Source: an uncultured virus (IMG/VR IMGVR_UViG_3300023174_008763)
Lineage: Duplodnaviria; Heunggongvirae; Uroviricota; Caudoviricetes
Direction: 5' to 3' (one strand)
IMG/VR virus record: IMGVR_UViG_3300023174_008763
DNA: 20,000 bases
Numbering within the stretch: position 1 is the first letter of the stretch; the number at the start of each line of letters is the position of its first letter. Shown one piece after another: positions 1 through 19,987 of this stretch. Both the position numbers and the translations under genes were made by a program. Under the pieces are notes generated by a model. The model was not told the DNA's origin. It did no database searches and saw only the letters and a list, made by a program, of their open reading frames with translations.

Positions 1-330
1 GATAATTGCTATAGATTTTCAGGTAACCCATTCAAACAAGGTGAAACTTTGAAATATGGCAATGAATTTCTCGATCAAATCCAAGCAATTGTAACTATAG
101 TAAACAATTTATTGAAAACCAATAAATTAACAAAAGCCAATCAAGAAAATTTTAAAAAAGCAGTATTTGGTGTTGGTAGAAAAGACTCACCTTTTGCTAA
201 AGTAAGTGCAATCAAGCAAATTGCTATAAATGTTTCAGATTTTATTTTGGGATCAGGAACCATATCAGGAGATGCTCCAAATCTCATTGCTAAAGCCGAA
301 GGATTGATGCAGCAGATGCTGTCTGTTTAA
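1..330 (+). CDS. Hypothetical protein, 5'-partial (runs off the left edge)
   Basis: The frame of ORF 49..330 is open back to position 1 (DNCYRFSGNPFKQGETLKYG...). Stop TAA at 328-330. No recognisable motif. Confidence 0.7.
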   Translation, partial: DNCYRFSGNPFKQGETLKYGNEFLDQIQAIVTIVNNLLKTNKLTKANQENFKKAVFGVGRKDSPFAKVSAIKQIAINVSDFILGSGTISGDAPNLIAKAEGLMQQMLSV

Positions 331-503
331 TCAATTTGAAAGAAATGAGAAGAAATATACCCGAAGCTCTTGGGGAATCAACGCCTGTGGAGATGAAAGC
401 TCTGGTAGATGGCTCCGCCATCTACGAAACTATCGTCGCAGAAGCAGGAATAAAACATCAATTAAGAACAAATGTTCAGAATTGTGTAAGTTTTTAAGAG
501 CGG
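330..503 (+). mobile_element. Remnant right end of an IS607/IS605-type tnpB element (TnpB C-terminal tail plus omegaRNA scaffold, no nuclease gene)
   Basis: Translates as INLKEMRRNIPEALGESTPVEMKAL...ETIVAEAGIKH...CVSF*, resembling the tail after the TnpB 'NAAINL' motif. Contains the recalled tnpB 3'-end words ACGCCTGTGGAGA, GAAGCAGGAA and a GTAAGTTTT...GAGCGG terminus. Hairpin GTAGATGGC/GCCATCTAC at 405-425. Pseudoknot GCTCTT (366-371) with AAGAGC (496-501). Confidence 0.75.
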
Positions 504-560
504 ACTAAAGGTTCCCCTGACGAGAGTTTACGACATTCCAGATCGAATCACTTTTGGCGA
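504..560. repeat. Dispersed non-coding repeat, copy 1 (partner at 19928-19987)
   Basis: ACTAAAGGTTCCCCTGACGAG vs ACTATAGGTTCCCCTGAAGAG (19/21), followed by ATTCCAGA..GAATC..TTTG(G)CGA in both copies. Confidence 0.7.
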
Positions 561-601
561 CCCGAAAAGGATGTTTCAATAATTCACTTAAATTTACGAT
601 T

Positions 602-1636
602 GTGTGGTATAAGTTTAGTCAATCAAATAACCCAATCGTTTGGATTGACAAAGACAATAAACAATATGTGTTATATATTGATAGAAATGGCAAACAACAG
701 AAAGTACCTTTTGATTCTGCTCAAAAACTAGGCATAAACCCAAATAATTTACCAGTAACTAATAATCCAAATTTCGTTAAAAAGAACATTTCCAATTGGA
801 ATTTCAACGATCAAAGCACCAGTCTTACGACAAATAATCCAGATTCCCAATCATTGTTTAACCCAGATTTTACCAGATATCAATCTCAGCAAGGATATAA
901 TTTGATGAATCAAGGATATTCTCTAGATCAAGCCAAACAGATCGTAAATAGCCAAGAATTTATTCAACAATACAATGCAAAAAATTCTTCATTAGGTAGT
1001 CAAAGCGATAGAAATAACCCAATCGTTTGGATCGACAAAGATAATAAACAATATGTATTATATATTGACAAAAATGGCCAACAGCAAAAAGAACCTTTTG
1101 AAACTGCGCAACAAAAATTAGGATTAGATCCAAATCATTTACCAACAACCAATGATCCAAATTTTGTCAAAAAGAATATTTCTAATTGGAATTTTAATGA
1201 TCAAAACACCAGGCTCACCGCCAATTCACCAGGATATTACAGCGGAAAAGATAAATATTCTGTAGAAAAAACTGGTTATATCAGCGAGCCAAAAAGTGAA
1301 CCTAAAATAGACACCACAAATATTACAGAATCAAATTTAAATTCAGCCAAAGCAGATAAAACAAATAAAGTACATTTGGTTAAAAACGACAAAGGCGATT
1401 ACGAAGTATGGTCAAATGGCCAGAAAACGCAAAGAACATTTGTAAATGATACAGGGCAAAAAAACTGGAGTGCAGAGGAAATGAAATCCGCCCTTAAAAA
1501 TTCTCCTCCTCCTGCAACAAATACACCTAATGCCGCGAAAAATCAATCTTCTACTCCTGCCCCCAAGCAAACACAGCCACCTCAGCAAAAAGAAGCTCCT
1601 AAGCAACCAGCGACCCCTGAACAAAAACCCAAATAA
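602..1636 (+). CDS. Hypothetical N/Q-rich protein with duplicated ~66-aa domain and Pro/Gln/Lys-rich tail
   Basis: ORF 554..1636. The more plausible start is GTG 602 (MWYKFSQ...) because 554-600 overlaps the repeat/hairpin region. Two copies of NNPIVWIDKDNKQYVLYID...FVKKNISNWNFNDQ. Confidence 0.75.
   Translation: MWYKFSQSNNPIVWIDKDNKQYVLYIDRNGKQQKVPFDSAQKLGINPNNLPVTNNPNFVKKNISNWNFNDQSTSLTTNNPDSQSLFNPDFTRYQSQQGYNLMNQGYSLDQAKQIVNSQEFIQQYNAKNSSLGSQSDRNNPIVWIDKDNKQYVLYIDKNGQQQKEPFETAQQKLGLDPNHLPTTNDPNFVKKNISNWNFNDQNTRLTANSPGYYSGKDKYSVEKTGYISEPKSEPKIDTTNITESNLNSAKADKTNKVHLVKNDKGDYEVWSNGQKTQRTFVNDTGQKNWSAEEMKSALKNSPPPATNTPNAAKNQSSTPAPKQTQPPQQKEAPKQPATPEQKPK
625..1212 (+). repeat. Intragenic direct repeat (~625-822 and ~1012-1212)
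   Basis: Near-identical protein segments. Many DNA differences are at synonymous positions. Confidence 0.85.
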
Positions 1637-1651
1637 ACCGTATAAAAAATA

Positions 1652-2266
1652 ATGTACTTTAATTTAATGGGCGAAACTTTCCCCACTGTTGTCAACGCGC
1701 CTGGTCAAAGCTACATGATACATCTTCAAGGGTGCAATTTGGGCTGTCAACAATGTTTTAATCCAGAATCTTGGTCATTTAAAACCAAAAACTTAGTAAA
1801 TGTAGAAGAACTTGCTGATAAAATTATTTCACACAATCCTGATTCTCTTACAATTAGTGGCGGCGAGCCTTTTCTTCAAATTCGCCCCCTTCTTTATTTT
1901 CTCAAATACTTACACAACGAAGATCCACACAATTGTCCATTTCCCAAAGGAATATTAATTTATTCAGGCTTTTATGAAGAAGAATTAATCAAAATGCCAG
2001 AATATAAACAAATTTTAAACTATGTTGATGTAATTGTGTCTGGAAGATTTGATTTTAATAAAAGAATTTATAATTCATTGCTGTCGAGCAGTAATCAAAA
2101 ATTTATTTGGGGTGATCGAGGTTTGATTAAAGAACAAGATCTTGAAAATCAAAATTACGAAATAATCATAGAAGAAGAGGGATTAAAACTCACTGGATTT
2201 CCTTCAGATTGGAATAAAGAAATAATAAAAGACCTAAAATCAAAAGGCATAGAATTTAGGAATTAG
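1652..2266 (+). CDS. Radical SAM 4Fe-4S protein, NrdG/RNR-activating-enzyme-like
   Basis: N-terminal 'VNAPG..YMIHLQGC', CxxxCxxC (CNLGCQQC), 'LTISGGEPFLQ', 'DVIVSGRF' and 'SSNQK' motifs. Confidence 0.85.
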   Translation: MYFNLMGETFPTVVNAPGQSYMIHLQGCNLGCQQCFNPESWSFKTKNLVNVEELADKIISHNPDSLTISGGEPFLQIRPLLYFLKYLHNEDPHNCPFPKGILIYSGFYEEELIKMPEYKQILNYVDVIVSGRFDFNKRIYNSLLSSSNQKFIWGDRGLIKEQDLENQNYEIIIEEEGLKLTGFPSDWNKEIIKDLKSKGIEFRN

Positions 2267-2336
2267 TAATAATTTTGTAGAATATTATATGTAGGTTCCG
2301 CAGAATCCATTGATTCATTCGAACCGAAGGTATAAA

Positions 2337-3050
2337 ATGAACACATTCAAAACACAATCTGATGCTTCGCTTATCAGTGAATATCAAAGAAACTTAAATA
2401 ATTCCGATCTTTTAGAATATCTTCTAGCAAAATTTGAGCCAATTTGCAAAAAACTTGCCTATGCTCACACACAAAAATATCCTACCACGCTTTTCGAGGA
2501 TAATCTTCAAAATAGTAGATTGGGTTGTCTGCTGGCTTTCCGCAGATACAAAGCGAATTCTAGCAAACCTTCCACATTTATATATTCCACCATTTATCAC
2601 TACCTTCTGTCTTGTAATGATGAAGAAGCATTTGTTAATTGCCCAACAAATATCAGAGAAGTAAGATCTTACATTGGCGGAAAATACAATTCGCATCCTG
2701 AGAAGAAAAGAAAATTTGAGAAAAAACATGGCATAAATAACAAAAGTGATTATGACAATCTCGCTCGCCAATACTCTCTCGTTAATCCAGAAAATATGCA
2801 AATCAAATCCGACGACCAATTGCCCGAAAATACATATGTTCATAATATTTTGGATAATATTTGCAACAGCATGTTCGTTGATAGCTTGTCTTTAGAATGT
2901 AAACAGATTGCATATTTGTTAATTCAAGGATATTCTCAAACAGAAATTTCAGAGATTATGTCAAAAAATAAATCTACGACAATTAAACAAATTGGAGCAA
3001 AAATAAACATAATCAGAAAAAATCTCGTAAAATACTATCATGAGTGTTAA
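2337..3050 (+). CDS. Divergent sigma-70-family RNA polymerase sigma factor
   Basis: Region-2-like 'LLAKFEPICKKLAY...FEDNLQNSRLGCLLAFRRY...PSTFIYSTI' and region-4 HTH-like 'GYSQTEISEIM'. ATG 2337 preferred over TTG 2310. Confidence 0.7.
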   Translation: MNTFKTQSDASLISEYQRNLNNSDLLEYLLAKFEPICKKLAYAHTQKYPTTLFEDNLQNSRLGCLLAFRRYKANSSKPSTFIYSTIYHYLLSCNDEEAFVNCPTNIREVRSYIGGKYNSHPEKKRKFEKKHGINNKSDYDNLARQYSLVNPENMQIKSDDQLPENTYVHNILDNICNSMFVDSLSLECKQIAYLLIQGYSQTEISEIMSKNKSTTIKQIGAKINIIRKNLVKYYHEC

Positions 3051-3570
3051 ATATTACAGTGTGCATGTTATACCAGGCAGAGAAAATAAAGCTAGAGACA
3101 TGCTTTTAAATAGAGCAGTGGCCCATAAAGCTTGGCAAGATACAATTTTGGAAATAATCATTCCTACTCAAAAAGAATTTGTAACACGAAATGGAAAAAG
3201 AAAAATTGTTGACAAAAAAATCTTTCCTGGATACATCTTTATCAAAATGTATCTTGATGAATACACTGAAAAGTTGGTTCAGGGTACAGATGGTGTGTCT
3301 GGTTTTGTAAGAGTGGGCAAAAAACCAGTTCCGATGGAAGATTATGAAATTGAAAAGATTCTTAAAAATCTTGAAAATCAAGAAGAATCTCCGCAATCAA
3401 CGTTTAAGCCAAACGATATTGTGTTGATTGTTTCAGGTCCATTCTCAGAATTTAAAGGTAAAATTGAAAGCGTGGATGAGACAAAATCAAAGGTGAAAGC
3501 CTATGTGAATATTTTTGGCAGAGATACTCTCGCTGAATTCGATATGAAAGATGTCCAATTAAATGCTTGA
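3040..3570 (+). CDS. nusG: Transcription termination/antitermination factor NusG
   Basis: NGN domain (YSVHVIPGRENK, KIFPGYIFIKM, GVSGFV) and KOW domain (VLIVSGPFSEFKGKI, VNIFGRDT). Confidence 0.95.
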   Translation: MSVKYYSVHVIPGRENKARDMLLNRAVAHKAWQDTILEIIIPTQKEFVTRNGKRKIVDKKIFPGYIFIKMYLDEYTEKLVQGTDGVSGFVRVGKKPVPMEDYEIEKILKNLENQEESPQSTFKPNDIVLIVSGPFSEFKGKIESVDETKSKVKAYVNIFGRDTLAEFDMKDVQLNA

Positions 3571-3581
3571 TTTTCAATTTT

Positions 3582-3610
3582 TTCCCACCTTCACACAATC
3601 TGGGTATAAC
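3582..3610 (+). promoter_or_regulatory. Repeated promoter cassette copy 1 (TTCCCA-N17-TATAAC)
   Basis: TTCCCACCTTCACACAATCTGGGTATAAC. ATG 5 nt downstream (3616). Confidence 0.8.
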
Positions 3611-3615
3611 AAGGT

Positions 3616-4044
3616 ATGCCTAGTAAGACTATAGTTAGATACGCAAAGAATGCTTGCAAGAAATCCTCTTGTGAGCATTCTTTGGCCGCCGTGCTTTACA
3701 AAGGGGGAGCGGTTATTCGCGTAGCCTGCAATGAAAATAAAACGCTGGCCTATAGAAAGAAATACTTTTCTCATGGAGAGCCTTCCCGCCATGCGGAGAT
3801 GAATGTCATTCATGGCATTCCAAGAGATGTAATCACTAAGTGTTCAATGCTTGTTGTTCGTTTGAATAAGAAAAATGAATTATCGTCGGCTAAGCCATGT
3901 ATAGCTTGTGCCAGCGCTCTCTATGATGCAGGTATTAAAAAAGTTTATTATACTTCCTATACAGGAGAAATTTTAAAACTTGATTTTAATGAACTTTCTG
4001 AAGGCAAATACGTTAAGGAAAATTATCTCAATTATACACGATAA
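3616..4044 (+). CDS. Zinc-dependent cytidine/dCMP deaminase-family protein
   Basis: HAE motif (RHAEMN), PCxxC (KPCIAC) and 'GIKKVYY'. Confidence 0.85.
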   Translation: MPSKTIVRYAKNACKKSSCEHSLAAVLYKGGAVIRVACNENKTLAYRKKYFSHGEPSRHAEMNVIHGIPRDVITKCSMLVVRLNKKNELSSAKPCIACASALYDAGIKKVYYTSYTGEILKLDFNELSEGKYVKENYLNYTR

Positions 4045-4050
4045 AATATT

Positions 4051-4599
4051 ATGAAAACAAAACAAGAACATTTCGAACAATTATTTAAAGAATCTCGGAC
4101 CAAGCTTTACAACGTAGCTTACAACATTACCAAAAATAGAGAAAATGCCGAAGAGGTATTACAAGACGCATATGTAAAAGCATGGAAAAAATTCGATTCT
4201 TATGATCCTGAAAAGAAATTCATCAATTGGATGACAACAATTGTTAGAAATGCGGGAATTGATGCCAACAGATTACGTAATAAGAATGTATCTGCTTTTT
4301 CTATCAATAGTGTTTTTGTTAATAATGATAAAGATTCAAGTCAAAATCTTCAATTAGACGTAGAAGACAAATCTTCTGATTTGTATGCTATGCTTGAAAA
4401 TAAAGAATTGATGAAAAGCATTTATGAATCTGTTGCTAAGCTTCCCGCCGATCTACAGATTGTTATGATTCCGTTTATGGAAGGCCAAACATACACGGAA
4501 ATTTCAGATTCTTCTAATCTTGCGCTTACTACAGTGAGGGCAAGAGTACACAGAGGAAAGAAAATTTTGCGAAGTTCAATTAACATCGCAAACTTTTAA
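4051..4599 (+). CDS. ECF-type RNA polymerase sigma factor
   Basis: 'LYNVAYNIT..RENAEEVLQDAYVKAW...FINWMTTIVRN..ID' (region 2) and 'GQTYTEIS...TTVRARVHRGKK' (region 4). Confidence 0.9.
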   Translation: MKTKQEHFEQLFKESRTKLYNVAYNITKNRENAEEVLQDAYVKAWKKFDSYDPEKKFINWMTTIVRNAGIDANRLRNKNVSAFSINSVFVNNDKDSSQNLQLDVEDKSSDLYAMLENKELMKSIYESVAKLPADLQIVMIPFMEGQTYTEISDSSNLALTTVRARVHRGKKILRSSINIANF

Positions 4600-4636
4600 G
4601 TAAAAAAACCGTATAAATTATTAAAGGAAAAAAAAT

Positions 4637-5095
4637 ATGAATAAACTAATCACAATTATTTCACTCGCCGCTCTCACCGTTGGTGCTTTTGCTCAATCAG
4701 GTGAAAAGCTCGGCCTACGACCTTATAACTGGAAGCCACAGGCTCAATTTCAAGCACAATCGCTAGATGTCAAGACATCTTCAGATGGTGTGAGCGTTCT
4801 TTGGCTCCGCGATGGCCTTTCGACAAACTACACCGCTCTTTCTGTTCCAATGTTCCAGGTTACTGGTCTTGGTAATCGAGTGAGTATCGTTGGACTAGGG
4901 GCTTATGATAGCAACTTCACTCGAACCAATGTTTGGGCTGGCACTGGCGTGTCTGTTTCCCTAGTGGAAACTTCAGGCTGGTCGGTTAAGGCATATGGCG
5001 GCTGGAAGGGCTTTAATCTTGGCAATAACTTCAATGCCGCCCAGGGCAAGGAAGCATTTGTCTACGGACTTGGATTCTCAGTTCCTATTCGTTAA
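4637..5095 (+). CDS. Secreted, probable outer-membrane beta-strand protein
   Basis: Signal peptide ending AFA|Q. Amphipathic Gly/aromatic strands (VWAGTGVSVSL, FVYGLGFSVP). SD-like AAGGA, higher GC than neighbours, followed by a strong terminator. Confidence 0.65.
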   Translation: MNKLITIISLAALTVGAFAQSGEKLGLRPYNWKPQAQFQAQSLDVKTSSDGVSVLWLRDGLSTNYTALSVPMFQVTGLGNRVSIVGLGAYDSNFTRTNVWAGTGVSVSLVETSGWSVKAYGGWKGFNLGNNFNAAQGKEAFVYGLGFSVPIR

Positions 5096-5109
5096 TTGAT
5101 TCTTTCGTC

Positions 5110-5137
5110 AAAATCCCTGAGAAATCAGGGATTTTTT
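5110..5137 (+). terminator. Rho-independent terminator
   Basis: AAAATCCCTGA-GAAA-TCAGGGATTTTTT. Confidence 0.85.
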
Positions 5138-5160
5138 GTTCTCTCACATAATAAATCAAT

Positions 5161-5556
5161 GGGGGTATAAGCGAATCGATTGACGAATGACATTCTCTAT
5201 GTTGCATGTAGTGGGTGAGTATCAGGCCACTTAAAAAGATATTCAAAAAATAAATGCTAAAACAAGCAAGAAAACTCGCAGATTCAACAAGGGCTTTGCT
5301 CAAGTTGGAAATGTAATGTTCGCCTAAGAGCGCACTGGAAAATTGAACACCCGTAGCTAGTAGGGTATCTTTTTTCTTAGAATTAAATCTAGCAAAAAAC
5401 ATTAATCACAATCTAATGTTAAAGTTTGTGCATAGAATTTTGTTGATTTGATAATATGTTCAACATTTTTCGGAGTAAAAAACAATTTATCTAAACATGT
5501 AGAAGCAAGATGATGGTTTGGGCAAGAAACGGGTTGGATTCCCGTTACCTCCACCA
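5161..5556 (+). ncRNA. ssrA: tmRNA
   Basis: 5' GGGGGTA pairs with 3' TACCTCC-ACCA, including a G3:U wobble (Ala identity). T-arm ACGGG-TTGGATT-CCCGT. PK1 from GTGG/CCAC plus GAGTATC/GATATTC. Resume context ATAAAT-GCT, then tag ORF 5256-5327. Confidence 0.92.
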
Positions 5557-5606
5557 AGATTTAGAATAATTTAGGTTAAAACTTGATGAATCACGAATAA
5601 ACAATT

Positions 5607-6155
5607 GTGTTTCAGGGTTTTGAAAAATTATATTTACCGTTTGAAAAGTGCACAGAAAAAGAAAAGATTTCTGCGGCAAATCTCATGGCTTTCCCCGAAG
5701 CTGTCACTCCAGAATTATATGATAGTATATTTTATTCCTGTGAATTGAGTTTAAGTGGAATTTGCAAGACTAAAACTGATTTCATTATTGGTGCATTTTT
5801 GGCCCGTGTTTTGCCGGGATATCAATTAATTTTATTAGAGAATATTTCAGTAAACCCAACGCTCAAATCGCGATCATACGGCAGAGATATTATAAATTAT
5901 TTAGGCGAAAAAGGTTTGAGTTTTTATGGTGAAAATTTTAAAGGCATTGTTTCACCAATTAAATGCGACAAAAAGAAAAAATCCACCGATCACAAAAACG
6001 CATTCTTATTAAGATCAATGATTAATTCAGGTGGTTCGATTATTGTTGAAGGCGCAAGAGCAAAAAACAATCATTTGCACTTCATTTATTTTCCTTATAA
6101 TGGAGGCAGTGACAATGAAGAAATCCAAGAGGTTTTCAAAAAAATATATTCTTAA
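5607..6155 (+). CDS. Putative GNAT-fold acetyltransferase
   Basis: 'LLENISVNPTLKSRSYGRDIINYL' resembles GNAT motif A. Confidence 0.45.
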   Translation: MFQGFEKLYLPFEKCTEKEKISAANLMAFPEAVTPELYDSIFYSCELSLSGICKTKTDFIIGAFLARVLPGYQLILLENISVNPTLKSRSYGRDIINYLGEKGLSFYGENFKGIVSPIKCDKKKKSTDHKNAFLLRSMINSGGSIIVEGARAKNNHLHFIYFPYNGGSDNEEIQEVFKKIYS

Positions 6156-6588
6156 TTTTTTTTTGTTAGCGATTGTTTTAGTTTTTGCAATTTATTTCCA
6201 TATATCCACATCTTATTTTTTTGTAATCGTTGAAGGCAATTCTATGAATCCCACTTTCAGAAGCCATCAAATCTTATATTTCACAAGAAATATCGATGAA
6301 ATTGGAATAGATAATGTAGTTGTCTTTAAGCGCAATGGCGAAACATGCATCAAAAGAATAACTGGGATTCCTGGAGGTTATTACCTCAAGAGTCAAGCTG
6401 AGCCATTAAGCTTTGTGATGGTCACGCAAGATTCTTTAAAAATTCGTAAAAGTAAATACTACACCATTCAAGCATTAAATCAAGATGAATTTTATATAGA
6501 AGGCGATAATCGAGGTGAATCTTTCGACTCAAATCGCTTTGGTCCAATTAAAAGATCTCAAATAATTGGAAAGCTTTTTGCATTTTGA
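6115..6588 (+). CDS. lepB: Signal peptidase I (S26)
   Basis: N-terminal TM helix, catalytic Ser box 'GNSMNPT', Lys box 'IKRITG' and 'GDNRGESFDSN'. ATG 6115 has GGAGG upstream. Confidence 0.9.
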   Translation: MKKSKRFSKKYILNFFLLAIVLVFAIYFHISTSYFFVIVEGNSMNPTFRSHQILYFTRNIDEIGIDNVVVFKRNGETCIKRITGIPGGYYLKSQAEPLSFVMVTQDSLKIRKSKYYTIQALNQDEFYIEGDNRGESFDSNRFGPIKRSQIIGKLFAF

Positions 6589-6604
6589 AATGTACAATTA
6601 AATA

Positions 6605-6898
6605 ATGTGGATCAATATTTTAGAAGAAGAATATGCGGTTATATCTCAAGCCCTCAGTCATTGTAATTTACACGGATTAAATTTTCTCATAAAAACAAAG
6701 CGAGGAGATTTTTCGCCACATAATCCCAAGCACACAAGGGAAAATGCCGTGAAAGCCGCCCAAACTTATTTTTCTGCAAATGATTTAATTATCAATGATG
6801 ATTGTGTTCAATGGACTGATGATGGTGATGCTCTTGTTATGGCTTGGCAAAAGGTACCGTCTGCGTTTATTGAAGAAAAATGTAATTGTGGAAAATAA
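6605..6898 (+). CDS. Hypothetical protein
   Basis: 97-aa ORF filling the gap, preceded by a TGTACA motif. Confidence 0.65.
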   Translation: MWINILEEEYAVISQALSHCNLHGLNFLIKTKRGDFSPHNPKHTRENAVKAAQTYFSANDLIINDDCVQWTDDGDALVMAWQKVPSAFIEEKCNCGK

Positions 6899-6938
6899 TT
6901 AAGGAATTTTCCTAAAAACTCTGAAAAATTAAATATAC

Positions 6939-7703
6939 ATGTCTATATTTATGTCGCCACATACACAACAATACTCTGTGGTTGATCCTATAAAAAACAA
7001 TTTGGATGAAGAGCTTATCAAAAATAATAAGCTCAGAAAGGATGTACGCGCAAAAATTTTAGATGCAGTGGATAAAATTTCGAGTAAACTAGATATTAAA
7101 GTAGAAAGAATTTATCTTGTTGGTTCCTCCCTTACCCATCAATATACCGACGATAGTGACATAGATGTAACAATATTTGTTAAGCACACTGAAGAAGAGT
7201 TACACAATCTGAATAAACTCGCAGACAAATATTTCAATGAAAAAATTTATATAAATGAACATCCAATCAATTTTCATTTTAATTCTGGCAGATATTATAA
7301 ATTTAAAGCAGACGCTATTTATGATTTAAAAAATGATAAATGGATCAAAAAGCCAGAAGCTATGTCTCAAGATGATGTTGAAGATATTATTCGCGGATGT
7401 CAAAATGTCAAAGAATTTAATGAAATTCTATCTGAATATACTGAATTAAAAAAAATGCTTGAATCATTTTCTGGTCAACAAGATTCTCTCACAGAAATAA
7501 TTGATCAAACGATGAAAGTTTCTAATTTATTCAATAAAATTAAAGACATTAGACGCGAAGATTTTAAAAAACGCGATACAGAAGGATTGCCTTCTGCAAA
7601 CTTTCGATGCAGTAATATAGTATTAAAATTATTAGAACAATATGGTCTTGATGATTTAGCTGCTCAAATCTCCACCTTTTTGTCTGCTAGGCTCAAAAAT
7701 TAA
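6939..7703 (+). CDS. Pol-beta superfamily nucleotidyltransferase
   Basis: 'IYLVGSSLTHQYTDDSDIDVTI' (GS..DxD) and 'AIYDLKNDKWIKKP', typical of phage NTases. Confidence 0.85.
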   Translation: MSIFMSPHTQQYSVVDPIKNNLDEELIKNNKLRKDVRAKILDAVDKISSKLDIKVERIYLVGSSLTHQYTDDSDIDVTIFVKHTEEELHNLNKLADKYFNEKIYINEHPINFHFNSGRYYKFKADAIYDLKNDKWIKKPEAMSQDDVEDIIRGCQNVKEFNEILSEYTELKKMLESFSGQQDSLTEIIDQTMKVSNLFNKIKDIRREDFKKRDTEGLPSANFRCSNIVLKLLEQYGLDDLAAQISTFLSARLKN

Positions 7704-8272: not shown

Positions 8273-8848
8273 ATGATACCCTTTGTGATTGAAAAAACAA
8301 GCTCCGGCGAGCGTTCTTATGATATTTGGAGTAGATTGCTCAAGGACAGAATTGTTTTCTTAGGCGACGATGTTAACGACGACACCGCCAATGCAATTAT
8401 TGCACAATTGTTATTTCTTGAGAAAGATGATCCAGATGCAGATATTCATTTTTACATAAACTCTCCCGGTGGAAGCGTTTATGCTGGTCTAGCAATCTAC
8501 GACGCCATGCAATTAATTAAATGTGATGTGTCAACCACATGCATCGGCATGGCGGCCTCTATGGGAGCAATTTTGCTTGCAGGTGGCACAAAAGGAAAAA
8601 GATATATCTTGCCAAATTCTCGCACAATGATACATCAAGTGAGTAGTGGTTTTCGTGGCACAGTTAAGGATATCAATGTTCAAGCCAAAGAAACTAATTT
8701 GCTCATGGATTCTCTAATGAATATTCTTTCTTGTCATACTGGCAAAGATATAGAAACAGTGAGAGATGATTGTGATAGAGACTGCTGGATGTCAGCAGAA
8801 GAAGCTTTGGCATATGGCCTAGTTGACGAAATCTTAAAACCATCTTAA
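8273..8848 (+). CDS. clpP: ATP-dependent Clp protease proteolytic subunit
   Basis: MIPFVIE N-terminus, '[15 protein letters not shown]', 'YINSPGG', and catalytic Ser (AASMG), His (MIHQ) and Asp (DRD). ATG 8273 lies 7 nt after CGTATA (ORF track start 8255). Confidence 0.96.
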
Positions 8849-8849
8849 T

Positions 8850-8878
8850 TTCCCACCTTCACAAAATCTGAGTATATT
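8850..8878 (+). promoter_or_regulatory. Repeated promoter cassette copy 2
   Basis: TTCCCACCTTCACAAAATCTGAGTATATT. ATG 5 nt downstream (8884). Confidence 0.8.
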
Positions 8879-8883
8879 ATATC

Positions 8884-9453
8884 ATGCTACCAAAATTATT
8901 AGAAATAGCAAAATCAAAACCACAGGCTATTATATTTGACCTAGACGGAGTTTTGGTGGATTCATCAGAGCGTTTTAAGCGTCTTGATTTAAGCGCATTT
9001 GACAATCGAGATAAATCTGCCTATATTGAGTCAGTGAGACAATATTCAAAAGATTGTGTTGGTGATATAGTAATCCCCGAGGGGTTAAATCTTCTTAAAT
9101 CTTTAGTGGAATTAAGCCCCAACATATTCTTTGTCACAGCAAGGGGGGAAACGGGCAGAAATCCAACATTGGCCTGGATAAATGATAATATTTGCGATCC
9201 TCTGATTTTGGACAAATCCAGCAAAGTGTTTAATTGGTCTTTGATTATGCATCCAGAAAACTTGGATAATTATGATTTTTCCACACAGCACGATCACGCA
9301 GAATACAAAAAGAAAGAAGCTAAAAAACTAATGGAACAATATGAAATCATTTATGCTGTAGATGATTCTTGGCTAAATTGTGAAGCTTTCATTTCTTTGG
9401 ATATTACCACCTTGCATTTTGTAAAACCTAATCTTGGCAGAGTTTTAGTTTGA
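8884..9453 (+). CDS. HAD-family phosphatase (PNKP phosphatase-like)
   Basis: Motif I 'IIFDLDGVL', motif II 'FVTAR', a Lys, and motif IV 'AVDD'. Confidence 0.85.
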   Translation: MLPKLLEIAKSKPQAIIFDLDGVLVDSSERFKRLDLSAFDNRDKSAYIESVRQYSKDCVGDIVIPEGLNLLKSLVELSPNIFFVTARGETGRNPTLAWINDNICDPLILDKSSKVFNWSLIMHPENLDNYDFSTQHDHAEYKKKEAKKLMEQYEIIYAVDDSWLNCEAFISLDITTLHFVKPNLGRVLV

Positions 9454-9476
9454 TATGTCAAGATCGGCCCGATATT

Positions 9477-9505
9477 TTCCCACCTTCACACAATCTGAGT
9501 ATAAT
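9477..9505 (+). promoter_or_regulatory. Repeated promoter cassette copy 3
   Basis: TTCCCACCTTCACACAATCTGAGTATAAT. GTG 5 nt downstream (9511). Half-palindrome GGCCCG upstream. Confidence 0.85.
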
Positions 9506-9510
9506 AAAGC

Positions 9511-10089
9511 GTGAAAATAGAAAATAACAAAAAAGTTTGGTTTACCAGTGATAGCCACGCCTGTCATCGCAATATTATCAAATATAGCAACAGGCCTTTT
9601 AAGTGTGTGGATGAAATGAACACACAATTAGTAAAAAACTGGAATGAACTCGTGAAGCCTGGTGATTTAACTTTTCATCTTGGCGATTTTTGCTTTGGAG
9701 ATCTATCACAATGGGAAAATTTTAGAAACCAACTCAATGGTGATATAATCCTCATTAAAGGCAATCATGATAAACTGCAAAATGGTCAAATCAAGCATTT
9801 ATTTCAAGGAATTCACAATTTTCTTGAGATTGATGTGAAAGACGAAGATGCACCAAGTGGCTGGCAACATATCACACTTTGCCATTACGCTCTTAGAGTG
9901 TGGAATCGCTCACACTACGGTGCATATTCCCTTTTTGGTCACAGCCACGGAAGTCTACCAGATGATCTTAATTCATTATCGTTTGATGTGGGTGTGGATT
10001 GCCACAACTATAAACCAATATCATACAATCGTGTTAAAGAGATAATGGCAACAAAAACTTTTAATCCAATCGATCACCACGGAAATTGA
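9511..10089 (+). CDS. Calcineurin-like metallophosphoesterase
   Basis: DxH (TSDSH), GD (HLGDF), GNHD, CHY and GHSH motifs, plus 'DVGVD'. Confidence 0.92.
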   Translation: MKIENNKKVWFTSDSHACHRNIIKYSNRPFKCVDEMNTQLVKNWNELVKPGDLTFHLGDFCFGDLSQWENFRNQLNGDIILIKGNHDKLQNGQIKHLFQGIHNFLEIDVKDEDAPSGWQHITLCHYALRVWNRSHYGAYSLFGHSHGSLPDDLNSLSFDVGVDCHNYKPISYNRVKEIMATKTFNPIDHHGN

Positions 10090-13480: not shown

Positions 13481-13530
13481 GGCCAAATTTGGCCCGCAAT
13501 TTTCCCACCTTCACACAATCTGAGTATAAT
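13481..13530 (+). promoter_or_regulatory. Repeated promoter cassette copy 4 with upstream palindrome
   Basis: GGCCAAATTTGGCC (13481-13494), then TTCCCA (13502)-N17-TATAAT (13525). ATG 5 nt downstream. Confidence 0.85.
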
Positions 13531-13535
13531 AAATT

Positions 13536-13844
13536 ATGAAAAATTTAATTATTTTAATAGTCGCAATTCTTTTTGTTTCAGGTTGCGCTACCGAAAATAA
13601 AAACCAAGTTCAAAAAAATCAAATTCTACCTTTGCTTAATAAAATAAAGCTTGGGCAAAGTGAGAAGGAAATAATTAATTTATTTGGTGAGCCAGACAAT
13701 TATGTTCAAGAAGTAGATAAAAAAAGCCATGCAATTATCACGCATTTAGATTATTTCAGTTCCAATAATAACATTAATTGTTTTAGGTTTATTTTTTTGA
13801 ACGATAAATTATTTAAATACGATTTAACAAATTTATCCAAGTGA
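13536..13844 (+). CDS. Lipoprotein, SmpA/BamE-like domain
   Basis: Lipobox LFVSG|C and 'KIKLGQSEKEIINLFGEPD' (GM[ST]..EV...LG.P pattern). Confidence 0.7.
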   Translation: MKNLIILIVAILFVSGCATENKNQVQKNQILPLLNKIKLGQSEKEIINLFGEPDNYVQEVDKKSHAIITHLDYFSSNNNINCFRFIFLNDKLFKYDLTNLSK

Positions 13845-14005: not shown

Positions 14006-15359
14006 ATGTCAGCAAAAAAAACAAAAGATCAATTTATTTTAGAAGCAATCGCCAAACATGGTGATAAATATGATTATAGTAAAGTGGAATATGAAGGCCG
14101 TAATAAAGAAGTTATAATTTTGTGCAAACAGCATGGTGGTGAGTTTAATCAAAAACCCTCTAACCACTTAAGTAGTGGTTGTAGTGTTTGTTCAGGAAAA
14201 AAAACATTAGAAGGTTTTAATGATTTACAAACTAAAAATCCAAAATTAGCAAAAGAATGGCATCCTACTAAAAATGTTGACTTGAAACCTACAGATGTCA
14301 CTTCTAGTTCAAATAAAATAGTATGGTGGCTAGGAGAATGCGGACACGAATGGGAAGCCTCAGTTAAAAATCGAAGCAAGGGAACTAGATGCTTAGATTG
14401 TTTTGGCAACAAAAAAAAGACATTCAAATATGTTAAAGAGCAAATCGAAATAGAAGGATTCAAGCTTTTATCAGATAGTTATGAAAAAGCTCATCAAAAA
14501 TTACAAATAAAGTGCCCAAATGGACACGAGTATAAGGTTACTTGGGGCAGTTGGCAACAAGGAACAAGATGCAAAGATTGTAAAGGGTTAAAAAAACATA
14601 GTTATCAAGATGTAAAAAACCATTTTGAGTCAGAAGGATATATACTTTTTTCCGACAGTTATGGAAATAACAAACAAAAATTACAAGTAAGCTGCCCAAA
14701 CGGGCATTCTTGGGAAGTATCTCGGGGATCATTTTTTTTTCAAAAAAACTCGATGCTCCGAATGCGACGGCAACAAAAAAAAGACATTCAAATATGTTAA
14801 AGAGCAAATCGAAATAGAAGGATTCAAGCTTTTATCAGATAGTTATGAAAAAGCTCATCAAAAATTACAAATAAAGTGCCCAAATGGACACGAGTATAAG
14901 GTTACTTGGGGCAGTTGGCAACAAGGAACAAGATGCAAAAAGTGTAACCTTTCACGCGGCGAAAAAATCATAAATCATATTTTGAAGACTTTTAATTATG
15001 TATATGAAACTGAATATACAAATGATTTGATAAAAAATAAAAATAAACTTAAGTTTGATTTTGCAATTTATGATAAAGATCAAAATTTAAAATGTTTGAT
15101 TGAATTCAATGGAATTCAGCATTATGAATTTATTGAACATTTTCATAAAGATAAAAATAGTTTTGGTCTATATAAAAACCGCGACAAAATCAAAATCGAA
15201 AAATGCAAGCAATTGAAAATACCTTTGCTGATTTTCACGGATCTTGATCTAAATAATTCAAAAACTGATTTAGTTTTGGAAAGTAAAAATAAATTATTTT
15301 CTTTTATTGAAAACCCTATCACAGATTATGGTTTTCATTATGAACTTTTAAGTGAATAA
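14006..15359 (+). pseudogene. Zinc-ribbon-repeat, PD-(D/E)xK (Vsr/DUF559-like) putative homing endonuclease split by a +1 frameshift
   Basis: 'KHGDKYDYSKVEY', 'LAKEWHPTKN...VWW..ECGHEW', repeated CPNGH...RCxxC modules and C-terminal 'FDFAI...LIEFNGIQHY'. Removing one base from T9-C-A7 (14732-14748) joins ORFs 14006 and 14982. Confidence 0.8.
14405..14939 (+). repeat. 171-bp identical direct repeat (14405-14575 and 14769-14939)
   Basis: The copies read identical. The offset of 364 (3n+1) independently shows one extra base between them. Confidence 0.9.
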
Positions 15360-16848: not shown

Positions 16849-16898
16849 CGGGCCAAATTTGGCCCGATTTTCCCACCTTCACACAATCTGAGTATAAT
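16849..16898 (+). promoter_or_regulatory. Repeated promoter cassette copy 5 with 18-bp palindrome
   Basis: CGGGCCAAATTTGGCCCG (16849-16866), then TTCCCA (16870)-N17-TATAAT (16893). ATG 6 nt downstream. Confidence 0.85.
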
Positions 16899-16904
16899 AA
16901 GAAT

Positions 16905-17315
16905 ATGGGCAGAATAATTCAAAATGCAGTAAAGGATATCACTTCCGACACATATTACCAATCCACACATGTCCATGATTATGTGGAATTCGAACATAAT
17001 GGACAAAATCATTTCATCGACGGAGGCCAAGAATATCTTAGACGATCTTTTGCCAACAGCGATCAGATTGTGGATTGGAGCTTATACGATGATTCTCCAC
17101 ACGATCTGATCAAGCGGAGAATGTTATGGGGAACATACGGGCTAAATGGCGACCAACCATTAAAATGGGTGCCACTTTTTGAATGCACCACAGAACATTT
17201 GCAGGCTATTCTTCGTACACAATTGTGTATTTCTCGTAGCACACAATTGTTGATTATGGAAATTTTGAATGATCGAGGAATTGAGGTAGAGGCACTAAAA
17301 AATGAAAATGACTGA
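16905..17315 (+). CDS. Conserved phage hypothetical protein
   Basis: 'STHVHDY...FIDGGQEYLRR' and 'WGTYGLNGDQPLKW' motifs, recalled from phage proteins. Confidence 0.75.
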   Translation: MGRIIQNAVKDITSDTYYQSTHVHDYVEFEHNGQNHFIDGGQEYLRRSFANSDQIVDWSLYDDSPHDLIKRRMLWGTYGLNGDQPLKWVPLFECTTEHLQAILRTQLCISRSTQLLIMEILNDRGIEVEALKNEND

Positions 17316-17650
17316 AGAACAAAACGAAGCATTTATCAGATGCCTCTAGAGCTTTTGGCCACGGCGGTGGAACCGATCTAGCTCTGCCAGTGCTTCATGC
17401 CTTAAAGAATAAGATTGTGTATGATTTGATTATCATCGGGACCGACAACGAAACTTGGCAGGGTTCAAGACATCTCGCCGATGCTTGGAAGCAGTATCAA
17501 AAAGATATTAATCCAAACGCCAAATTAGTGATTGCATCCACTGCCTCTAACCAATACACGGTAGGAGATCCAGATGATGTGTCAGTTTTGCAGTGTGTGG
17601 GGTTTGATGCACACTTGCTATCTATTGTCCAAAACTGGGCAAAGAGTTAA
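17312..17650 (+). pseudogene. C-terminal vWA fragment of Ro60/TROVE RNA-binding protein
   Basis: Frame reads ...GGGTDLALPVLHA...IIIGTDNETWQG..HLADAWKQYQKDINPNAKLVI...NQYTVGDPDD..VLQCVGFD, matching the Ro60 end. An in-frame stop at 17309-17311 means there is no TROVE domain. Confidence 0.8.
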
Positions 17651-19810: not shown

Positions 19811-19944
19811 TGACAGATTTAGAAAAAGCAAAAAATATAATTGAAAAATTATGGAATATTATTGATGACATAGATAGTTACGTGTTTTATAGAAAAATAT
19901 TCCTAACACGTTTTTTGGACAAAGGGAACTATAGGTTCCCCTGA
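19810..19944 (+). pseudogene. Short, probably truncated ORF (44 aa)
   Basis: TGATG coupling. Reads MTDLEKAKNIIEKLWNIIDDIDSY..., then runs into hairpin/repeat DNA and stops inside the repeat. Confidence 0.4.
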
Positions 19945-19987
19945 AGAGTCAAAGATTCCGCTAAGATTCCAGAAGAATCCTTTGCGA
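19924..19987. repeat. Dispersed non-coding repeat, copy 2 (multi-hairpin)
   Basis: GGGAAC-TATAG-GTTCCC hairpin, then GAGTC/GATTC and GATTC/GAATC hairpins. Similar to 504-560. Confidence 0.7.

Follow-up and report, generated by a model that had tools for sequence, protein, structure and literature searches.

The window, by which we mean the whole 20,000-nt stretch of uncultured viral DNA analysed here, has a G+C content of 33.8% and carries genes for NusG, a sigma factor, ClpP, DnaK, PTH2, dCMP deaminase and HNH and GIY-YIG-like endonucleases as well as a tmRNA, a gene content from which we infer a large uncultured phage, so that the window is probably part of such a genome. Searches of the GenBank phage collection gave no match for window positions 1-3000 (near mode) or 300-560 (distant mode). 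The tmRNA gene is complete (5161-5556, plus strand; RF00023, 75.2 bits, E 6.9e-28) and lies in a phage-like cluster. A 33-nt promoter-like motif, TTTTCCCACCTTCACACAATCTGAGTATAAT, is present five times just upstream of genes (3578-3618, 8846-8886, 9473-9513, 13498-13538 and 16866-16906) and many times in contigs L035, L036, L042, L043 and L047, placing these in the same lineage as the window. Damaged or duplicated genes were also observed. In a region with ORFs at 14006-14800 and 14982-15359, the end of an HNH/DUF4379 endonuclease gene is present twice as a 201-nt direct repeat (14383-14583 and 14747-14947, 95% identity) with an HNH-like fragment after it, together a mobile-gene relic. An 86-aa ORF at 17390-17647 has a match to the Ro60 vWA profile in the C-terminal part alone (positions 82-164 of 165) and looks like a truncated Ro60-like gene. 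The features relevant to the element described below are the following.

1 to 330, plus strand: 3' end of an upstream phage gene, here a 5'-open ORF of 109 aa with its native stop codon TAA at 328-330.
330 to 503, plus strand: 3' remnant of tnpB and omegaRNA scaffold region, made up of the last 55 codons (330-494), the stop codon (495-497) and the right end.
357 to 503, plus strand: structured omegaRNA core, 179.9 bits over positions 1-147 of covariance model R1, with covariation in the family.
360 to 374, plus strand: hairpin 1 (CCCGA/TTGGG; helix 1, 94.8% paired) with loop GCUC at 366-369.
384 to 448, plus strand: long stem, 384-388 with 444-448 and 392-396 with 433-437, around an inner hairpin (405-413 with 417-425).
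455 to 487, plus strand: 3' hairpin (helix 6, 89.4% paired), 459-469 with 474-484, extended by 455-457 with 485-487.
500 to 503, plus strand: element end GCGG, the last bases common to 14 copies, with the IS607-type core dinucleotide GG at 502-503.
504 to 524, plus strand: guide position, the first 21 nt of the flank past the right end.
504 to 560, plus strand: copy 1 of an intergenic module, comprising a hairpin's right half and then ATTCCAGA..GAATC.
554 to 1636, plus strand: downstream gene with internal repeats of ~390 nt, represented by two paralogues in contig L038 and by one in the window.
19923 to 19987, plus strand: copy 2 of the module, with AGGG at 19923-19926, A19927 and then a 19/21 match to the guide position.

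The initial annotation had described a tnpB gene deleted up to 'INLK' of which little more than the RNA-encoding part is left, and protein comparisons agree with that description. The frame starting at 330 reads INLKEMRRNIPEALGESTPVEMKALVDGSAIYETIVAEAGIKHQLRTNVQNCVSF (INLKEM...NCVSF) and is open to its native stop; its peptide aligned over 100% of its length with the C-terminus of the 426-aa TnpB P0001 (98% identity, E 2.2e-25), which supplies the tnpB-end homology on which the annotation depended, and matched two 405-aa TnpBs at 78% and 73%. P0001 carries the domains PF12323, PF01385 and PF07282 (HTH_OrfB_IS605, OrfB_IS605 and TNB), and the match in full-length TnpBs begins right after ...DRDLNAS. 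The remnant itself had no Pfam match and lies beyond the last Pfam domain of TnpB. A tblastn search of the 20-kb window with P0001 recovered residues 372-426 only, no compatible effector tnpB being detected within it, and no tnpA was found in the window. Residues D201, E285 and D367, which we take to be the RuvC catalytic acidic residues of the TnpB family, are invariant in five aligned family proteins and are all missing from the remnant. Cognate intact TnpBs exist on other contigs: three of the 15 listed members of the P0001 90% cluster (P0021, P0022 and P0028, each 405 aa) are full-length proteins whose last 55 residues are identical to those of the orphan, and another member of the cluster sits on a 291-kb contig. 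A 405-aa TnpB of the family is encoded at L043 3468-4682.

The motifs quoted for the RNA were at the places given for them (CTGTGGAGATG at 385, TATCGTCGCAG at 431, GTAGATGGC at 405, GCCATCTAC at 417, GCTCTT at 366 and AAGAGC at 496), and the covariance-model comparison that the annotation had suggested was carried out with R1, a model of 147 positions built from five distinct copies. The orphan scored much like the copies still attached to tnpB (179.9 bits vs 182-187 bits). R1 gave 39 matches at E <= 0.01 in 52 sources, and those examined lay where relatives of TnpB (35-50% identity; viral, bacterial and archaeal) have their 3' ends. In the resulting alignment, which was fitted to the structure of the model and therefore leans towards it, 92.9% of cells were paired as opposed to 37-43% when the partners were slid, with changes on both sides in 42 of the 43 pairs. 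The inner hairpin shows two compensatory pairs within the close family (GTAGATGGC/GCCATCTAC vs GTTGCTGGC/GCCAGCAAC), and because these changes also alter the protein they point to constraint on the RNA. Of the stems proposed as intact, the inner hairpin thus stood, but the outer register 385-395 x 431-441 was rejected, pairing in only 66.8% of cells compared with 93.5% for 384-388 x 444-448 and 93.0% for 392-396 x 433-437 in an alignment that favours the model.

Pairing of the loop GCTCTT with AAGAGC beside the element end, also proposed from the sequence, was borne out for its core, in which the hairpin-1 loop GCUC (366-369) pairs with GAGC (498-501) as a pseudoknot and covaries in relatives. 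These positions were paired in 83.3% of cells vs 34-46% when slid by one or two columns (65.2% at +3), both sides change in three of the four pairs, and relatives carry the variants GCUC/GAGC, GUUC/GAAC, GUCC/GGAC, GUUA/UAAC and GUUG/CAAC; since R1 was not fitted to this pairing, the support is independent of the model. In the minimum-free-energy fold, guide segment GGUUCCCC (510-517) forms eight pairs with scaffold segment GGGGAAUC (372-379), competing with hairpin 1, and such a predicted interaction could sequester the seed and hinder this particular guide.

TnpB homology, the tblastn result and the R1 score agree on an orphan omegaRNA with an intact fold and no nuclease gene, as initially annotated, and we consider it close to certain that window positions 330-503 are the orphan omegaRNA of a TnpB element. 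That the frame arose by chance, or is an assembly artefact without any RNA feature, finds its only support in the lack of an Rfam match (only the tmRNA reached threshold, and nothing relevant appeared at E <= 10 on window 200-700), and is refuted by the TnpB homology (E 2.2e-25), by the R1 score of 179.9 bits and by recurrence of the same junction in the independent contig L038; the orphan ORF is moreover on record for eight contigs, and we give this explanation practically no credence.

An exact-pattern scan of metagenome contigs yielded 13 loci which, with the window, make 14 copies. AAGAGCGG is the last sequence that they have in common, and 12 distinct flanks follow it. Because all copies diverge after this sequence, 503 is the last position of the element and 504 the first of the guide, the boundary that the annotation had chosen. 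A contig of the public run X1, of which a small share was covered and contigs only, carries 371-503 with a 13th flank and breaks again at 503; it represents another copy and has no bearing on expression. Among the distant R1 matches, 21 of 25 end in CGG. Left flanks are represented by two independent insertion sites only, TGGG in L001 and AGGG in L043/L047, the window copy having lost its own. In L003 a gene encoding a MerR-type HTH and a Resolvase domain lies directly upstream of each of two tnpB relatives (43% identity). In the close family (L001, L043) no tnpA was seen, the left end running straight into tnpB, and this family is accordingly non-autonomous. The GG end, the TGGG/AGGG left flanks and the resolvase-linked relatives identify the element, on sequence grounds, as IS607-type.

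For IS607 TnpB, the published core is strictly GG, the TAM is TGGG and the scaffold terminates in UCGG (bioRxiv 10.1101/2023.11.20.567912). As in published elements such as CboIStron, the omegaRNA here overlaps the tnpB 3' end and the guide is the right-end flank, the scaffold ends in CGG at the GG core, and the left flanks at the two sites (TGGG and AGGG) are suggestive of the same G-rich TAM (bioRxiv 10.1101/2023.11.20.567912). The window copy differs from IS607 TnpB elements in having no left end, no tnpB beyond the last 55 codons and no tnpA. The covariance model and the pseudoknot define the RNA of this IS607-type family.

Several arrangements of related elements were noted alongside. In L001 (4870-4885 and 6231-6240) the left end and the right flank begin with the same 8 nt (TGAAATAA), so that the insertion site looks like the junction at the element's own end, which would be expected if a serine recombinase pairs similar sites. 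L003, a viral contig, holds two tandem IS607 units (3122-7595), each with a MerR-Resolvase tnpA, tnpB and omegaRNA. In L040 (6429-6913, minus strand) a copy of the element lies inside a tnpB of another family (47% identity), its guide-position flank reading as the TnpB motif KIRNIRKD.

The left edge of the remnant coincides with the end of the upstream gene, the last A of its TAA being the first base of the tnpB sequence. Seven of the eight aligned homologues of this gene, window and L038 counted in, share the same ...SV end, which indicates that it is whole rather than truncated. As the conserved RNA core begins at 357, only 27 nt of additional tnpB sequence were retained. The left-end motif was found only in L001/L034/L037 and L043/L047 and is absent from the window and from L038, no G-rich TAM lies upstream of the remnant, and IMG/VR held no relatives of the upstream gene and hence provided no empty site. 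The remnant is an immobile, 5'-truncated deletion derivative. Its source would be a TnpB element of IS607 type, non-autonomous and active among the large uncultured phages of one lineage. A single deletion, reaching from the upstream stop codon to tnpB codon ~371 (P0001 numbering), would have removed the intergenic DNA, the left end with its TAM-bearing flank, all catalytic residues and ~1.1 kb of tnpB, leaving behind the ~147-nt scaffold core, the GCGG end and whatever flanking DNA occupies the guide position. A scan of positions 1-800 for promoters and terminators stayed at chance level; with no convincing terminator or promoter in between, the RNA would probably be transcribed together with the upstream gene, prolonging it at the 3' end.

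The same orphan was found in L038 (8,002 bp), with the upstream gene and junction as in the window and a scaffold (L038 3066-3239) that agrees with the window's in all 174 of its 174 positions, amid flanks that have diverged (36 differences in window positions 1-329 and 80 in 535-2381). The identical run at 311-503 (193 nt) exceeds the next longest between the two contigs (140, 129 and 115 nt). After GCGG the window has 24 nt (ACTAAAGG...) and L038 ~71 unrelated nt, both then joining the same promoter-like sequence, and the difference at the guide position starts exactly at the right-end boundary. The repeats of the downstream gene (625-842 and 1012-1232) have a period of ~387-390 nt and 79-87% identity. 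The window's single downstream copy looks like the outcome of recombination between two repeated promoter regions. The exact 50-aa ORF of the orphan (P0015) is on record for eight contigs, the longest of 71,887 bp, and copies of the element, some of them full, occur on contigs that share the promoter-like motif of the window (L035, L036, L040, L042, L043 and L047), from which we infer that the element family is active in the window's lineage. Beyond these contigs the scaffold pattern was found in IMG/VR only on the L001 contig and in GTDB species genomes not at all (0 matches), and a protein profile run against GTDB retrieved nothing but distant TnpBs, of which the best match, from a Synechococcus MAG, reached 52%, with no host indicated.

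The annotation had further drawn attention to a second occurrence of the guide within the window. The 21-mer at 504-524 does recur at 19928-19948 with two mismatches (guide positions 5 and 18), and none of 200 shuffles gave two matches. AGGG is likewise present, at 19923-19926, but does not adjoin the match, A19927 standing between them. Nor is the similarity confined to 21 nt as had been assumed, since the alignment extends over 504-560 and 19928-19987 with a local score of 39 vs 15.8 +/- 2.6 (maximum 32) in 500 shuffles. At 19924-19941 the hairpin GGGAAC-TATAG-GTTCCC is intact, the left arm in copy 1 having been replaced by the element end, and from ~528 on the sequence of copy 1 is common to two promoter-like regions of L038. 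The right flank is, judged from these alignments, part of a ~60-nt repeated terminator/promoter-like intergenic module, and it is probably because the flank belongs to this module that the match at 19928 exists.

In register, the 19928 site would offer GGGA as its TAM; if AGGG is taken as the TAM, the guide slips by one base and hardly any of its positions match. The -3 G is the most strictly read base of the published TGGG TAM of IS607 TnpB (bioRxiv 10.1101/2023.11.20.567912). The site was rejected as a guide target for its out-of-register TAM, its mismatch at guide position 5 and its paralogous flank, and we read it as shared flanking sequence and not a credible target. Of the two readings offered initially, a stand-alone guide RNA acting in trans on a phage repeat family or a decayed insertion into that repeat, the longer module, the TAM shift and the position-5 mismatch favour the second. 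The suggested mapping of guide matches and their TAMs gave the same picture for both orphans, neither guide having a TAM-flanked target in IMG/VR: there were 15 matches to a 16-mer of the window guide and 23 to an 18-mer of the L038 guide, none of them with an NGGG TAM. The IMG/VR matches stop at the searched core with the exception of L154 (22/24), which is preceded by TTGG and lies in an unrelated zinc-finger ORF. Matches of 16 nt in L006 and L007 had no TAM, and no empty sites for the other 11 flanks were found among the fetched loci. The L154 match (151-172; ..FGNLKSSKDGLRYDCKDC..) is on an unrelated viral contig and covers the first 22 nt after the L038 orphan (L038 3240-3261), so that the L038 flank may be a remnant of a zinc-finger gene or the match may be due to chance.

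What the orphan now does, if anything, was weighed from these observations. The most likely state, which we favour with moderate confidence, is that of a passive relic that sibling TnpBs could probably still load in trans. The TnpB of an intact sibling element could bind and process the orphan RNA, and a complex so loaded would be expected to cut at NGGG followed by ACTAAAGGTTCC... (NGGG + ACTAAAGGTTCCCCTGACGAG), that is, in sister phages with an uninterrupted intergenic hairpin module. In favour of a relic, no target was found in IMG/VR or the fetched loci, no sign of expression was seen and recombination between modules explains the exchange of flanks; the truncated or duplicated genes elsewhere in the window (the Ro60 vWA fragment and the HNH gene end) also suggest that relics are tolerated. 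Against it, the scaffold shows no difference from that of L038 in the midst of diverged flanks, the deletion is tidy, with its left edge at a stop codon and its right edge 27 nt upstream of the RNA core, the DNA at the guide position differs between the two contigs with the change exactly at the right end, and the remnant is free of decay, its frame still open to the native stop. The scaffold identity, the tidy deletion and the guide change are more readily explained by selection or selfish spread than by neutral decay.

Selfish spread could take the form of a 'cheater' guide, a minimal homing allele that parasitises the TnpB of intact sibling elements. During co-infection the omegaRNA would direct cutting of sister-phage genomes that lack the orphan, and repair would copy the orphan in, so that it spread with neither a nuclease gene nor transposon ends of its own. 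We regard this as possible, if unlikely. An omegaRNA supplied in trans to an IS607 TnpB is described as working as well as one in cis. Stand-alone omegaRNAs also function in trans (PMC10691335), and the cutting of empty sites for homing is given as an established role of TnpB (bioRxiv 10.1101/2023.11.20.567912 and 10.1101/2023.03.14.532601). The absence of any difference in 174 nt beside diverged flanks, the exact 50-aa orphan ORF on eight contigs, the existence of intact TnpBs with an identical C-terminus and the compactness of the truncation are all in keeping with such spread. However, the empty target allele (NGGG + guide) was not found in the fetched loci or in IMG/VR, the right flanks of the window and L038 differ, so that at least one did not arise by simple homing, and the identical block is equally explicable by recent recombination in mosaic phages.

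A domesticated guide, with a fixed scaffold and exchangeable guides that aim a TnpB or TldR at competitors or at the phage's own promoter-proximal repeat for defence or regulation, appears very unlikely. It would account for one scaffold and junction carrying different guide-position DNA in two contigs and for the location of 19928 in a terminator/promoter-like intergenic module, and TldRs offer a precedent (PMC13622181). On the other side, the TldR link drawn by the annotation did not materialise, no nuclease-dead copy being seen and D201, E285 and D367 being kept in the five aligned family proteins; at 19928 the TAM is out of register and the seed mismatched, neither guide has a TAM-flanked IMG/VR target, only two alleles are known, and recombination of the repeated promoter module explains both the flank swap and the loss of one downstream paralogue. 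No sign was seen that the phage has adopted the RNA or uses it. Rather improbable, in our estimate, is a guide gene without a protein, fixed at its locus and living on the TnpB of sibling elements, which either spreads between co-infecting phages in the manner of a minimal homing allele or is retained by the phage, and whose guide can be exchanged by recombination exactly at the right-end GG. If this were true, the locus would stand midway, in nature, between an omegaRNA still bound to its transposon and a free-standing locus of scaffold plus spacer. Returning to the relic still open to loading, if sibling TnpBs do load such RNAs, the relics would widen the set of sites that these nucleases cut and would behave as cheaters when phages compete.

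The orphan has counterparts among known guide RNAs. Stand-alone omegaRNAs are described as 'evidently mobilized' and working in trans (Altae-Tran et al. 2021, as summarised in PNAS 2023, PMC10691335). The orphan resembles them in its complete scaffold, the lack of an adjacent effector and the presence of compatible effectors in the same population, but differs in that it has no left end, was made by deletion in place and is immobile (PMC10691335). PATEs, gene-less mini-IS of the IS200/IS605 group, encode omegaRNAs as well (Meers et al. 2023, bioRxiv 10.1101/2023.03.14.532601); like the orphan they are protein-less, keep the guide RNA and would need TnpB in trans, whereas PATEs keep both ends and transpose, the orphan having a right end only and being IS607- rather than IS605-type (bioRxiv 10.1101/2023.03.14.532601). 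With the TldR guide RNAs of PMC13622181 the orphan shares a TnpB-type guide and an intergenic, promoter-proximal look-alike site; unlike what is described there, the family keeps its catalytic triad and the look-alike site has no in-register TAM. Since omegaRNAs work in trans and gene-less omegaRNA elements are known, the kind is not new, and the orphan is a further, well-documented instance among the stand-alone omegaRNAs already known. It illustrates cleanly how a TnpB element in what is probably a large phage has decayed in nature until nothing but the guide-RNA gene was left, precisely where a neighbouring gene ends, and how this relic has lasted in phage backgrounds that have diverged and that differ in their DNA at the guide position.

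Two further loci with tnpB-related sequences were noted. L038 encodes a different TnpB (6440-7558, minus strand; 372 aa, 30% identity to P0001) with a different RNA, which was not matched by R1 and sits at the point (window 2381) from which the window and L038 no longer resemble each other; in the window, 2310-3050 is instead an ORF with a weak SegE GIY-YIG match, and this breakpoint may be a hotspot for mobile genes. In L084 (3001-3487), from a Thermoleophilia MAG, an internal deletion has joined tnpB residues 23-59 to 306-417 while an R1-positive omegaRNA (73.9 bits) was retained, which is a different route to a nuclease-less guide locus.
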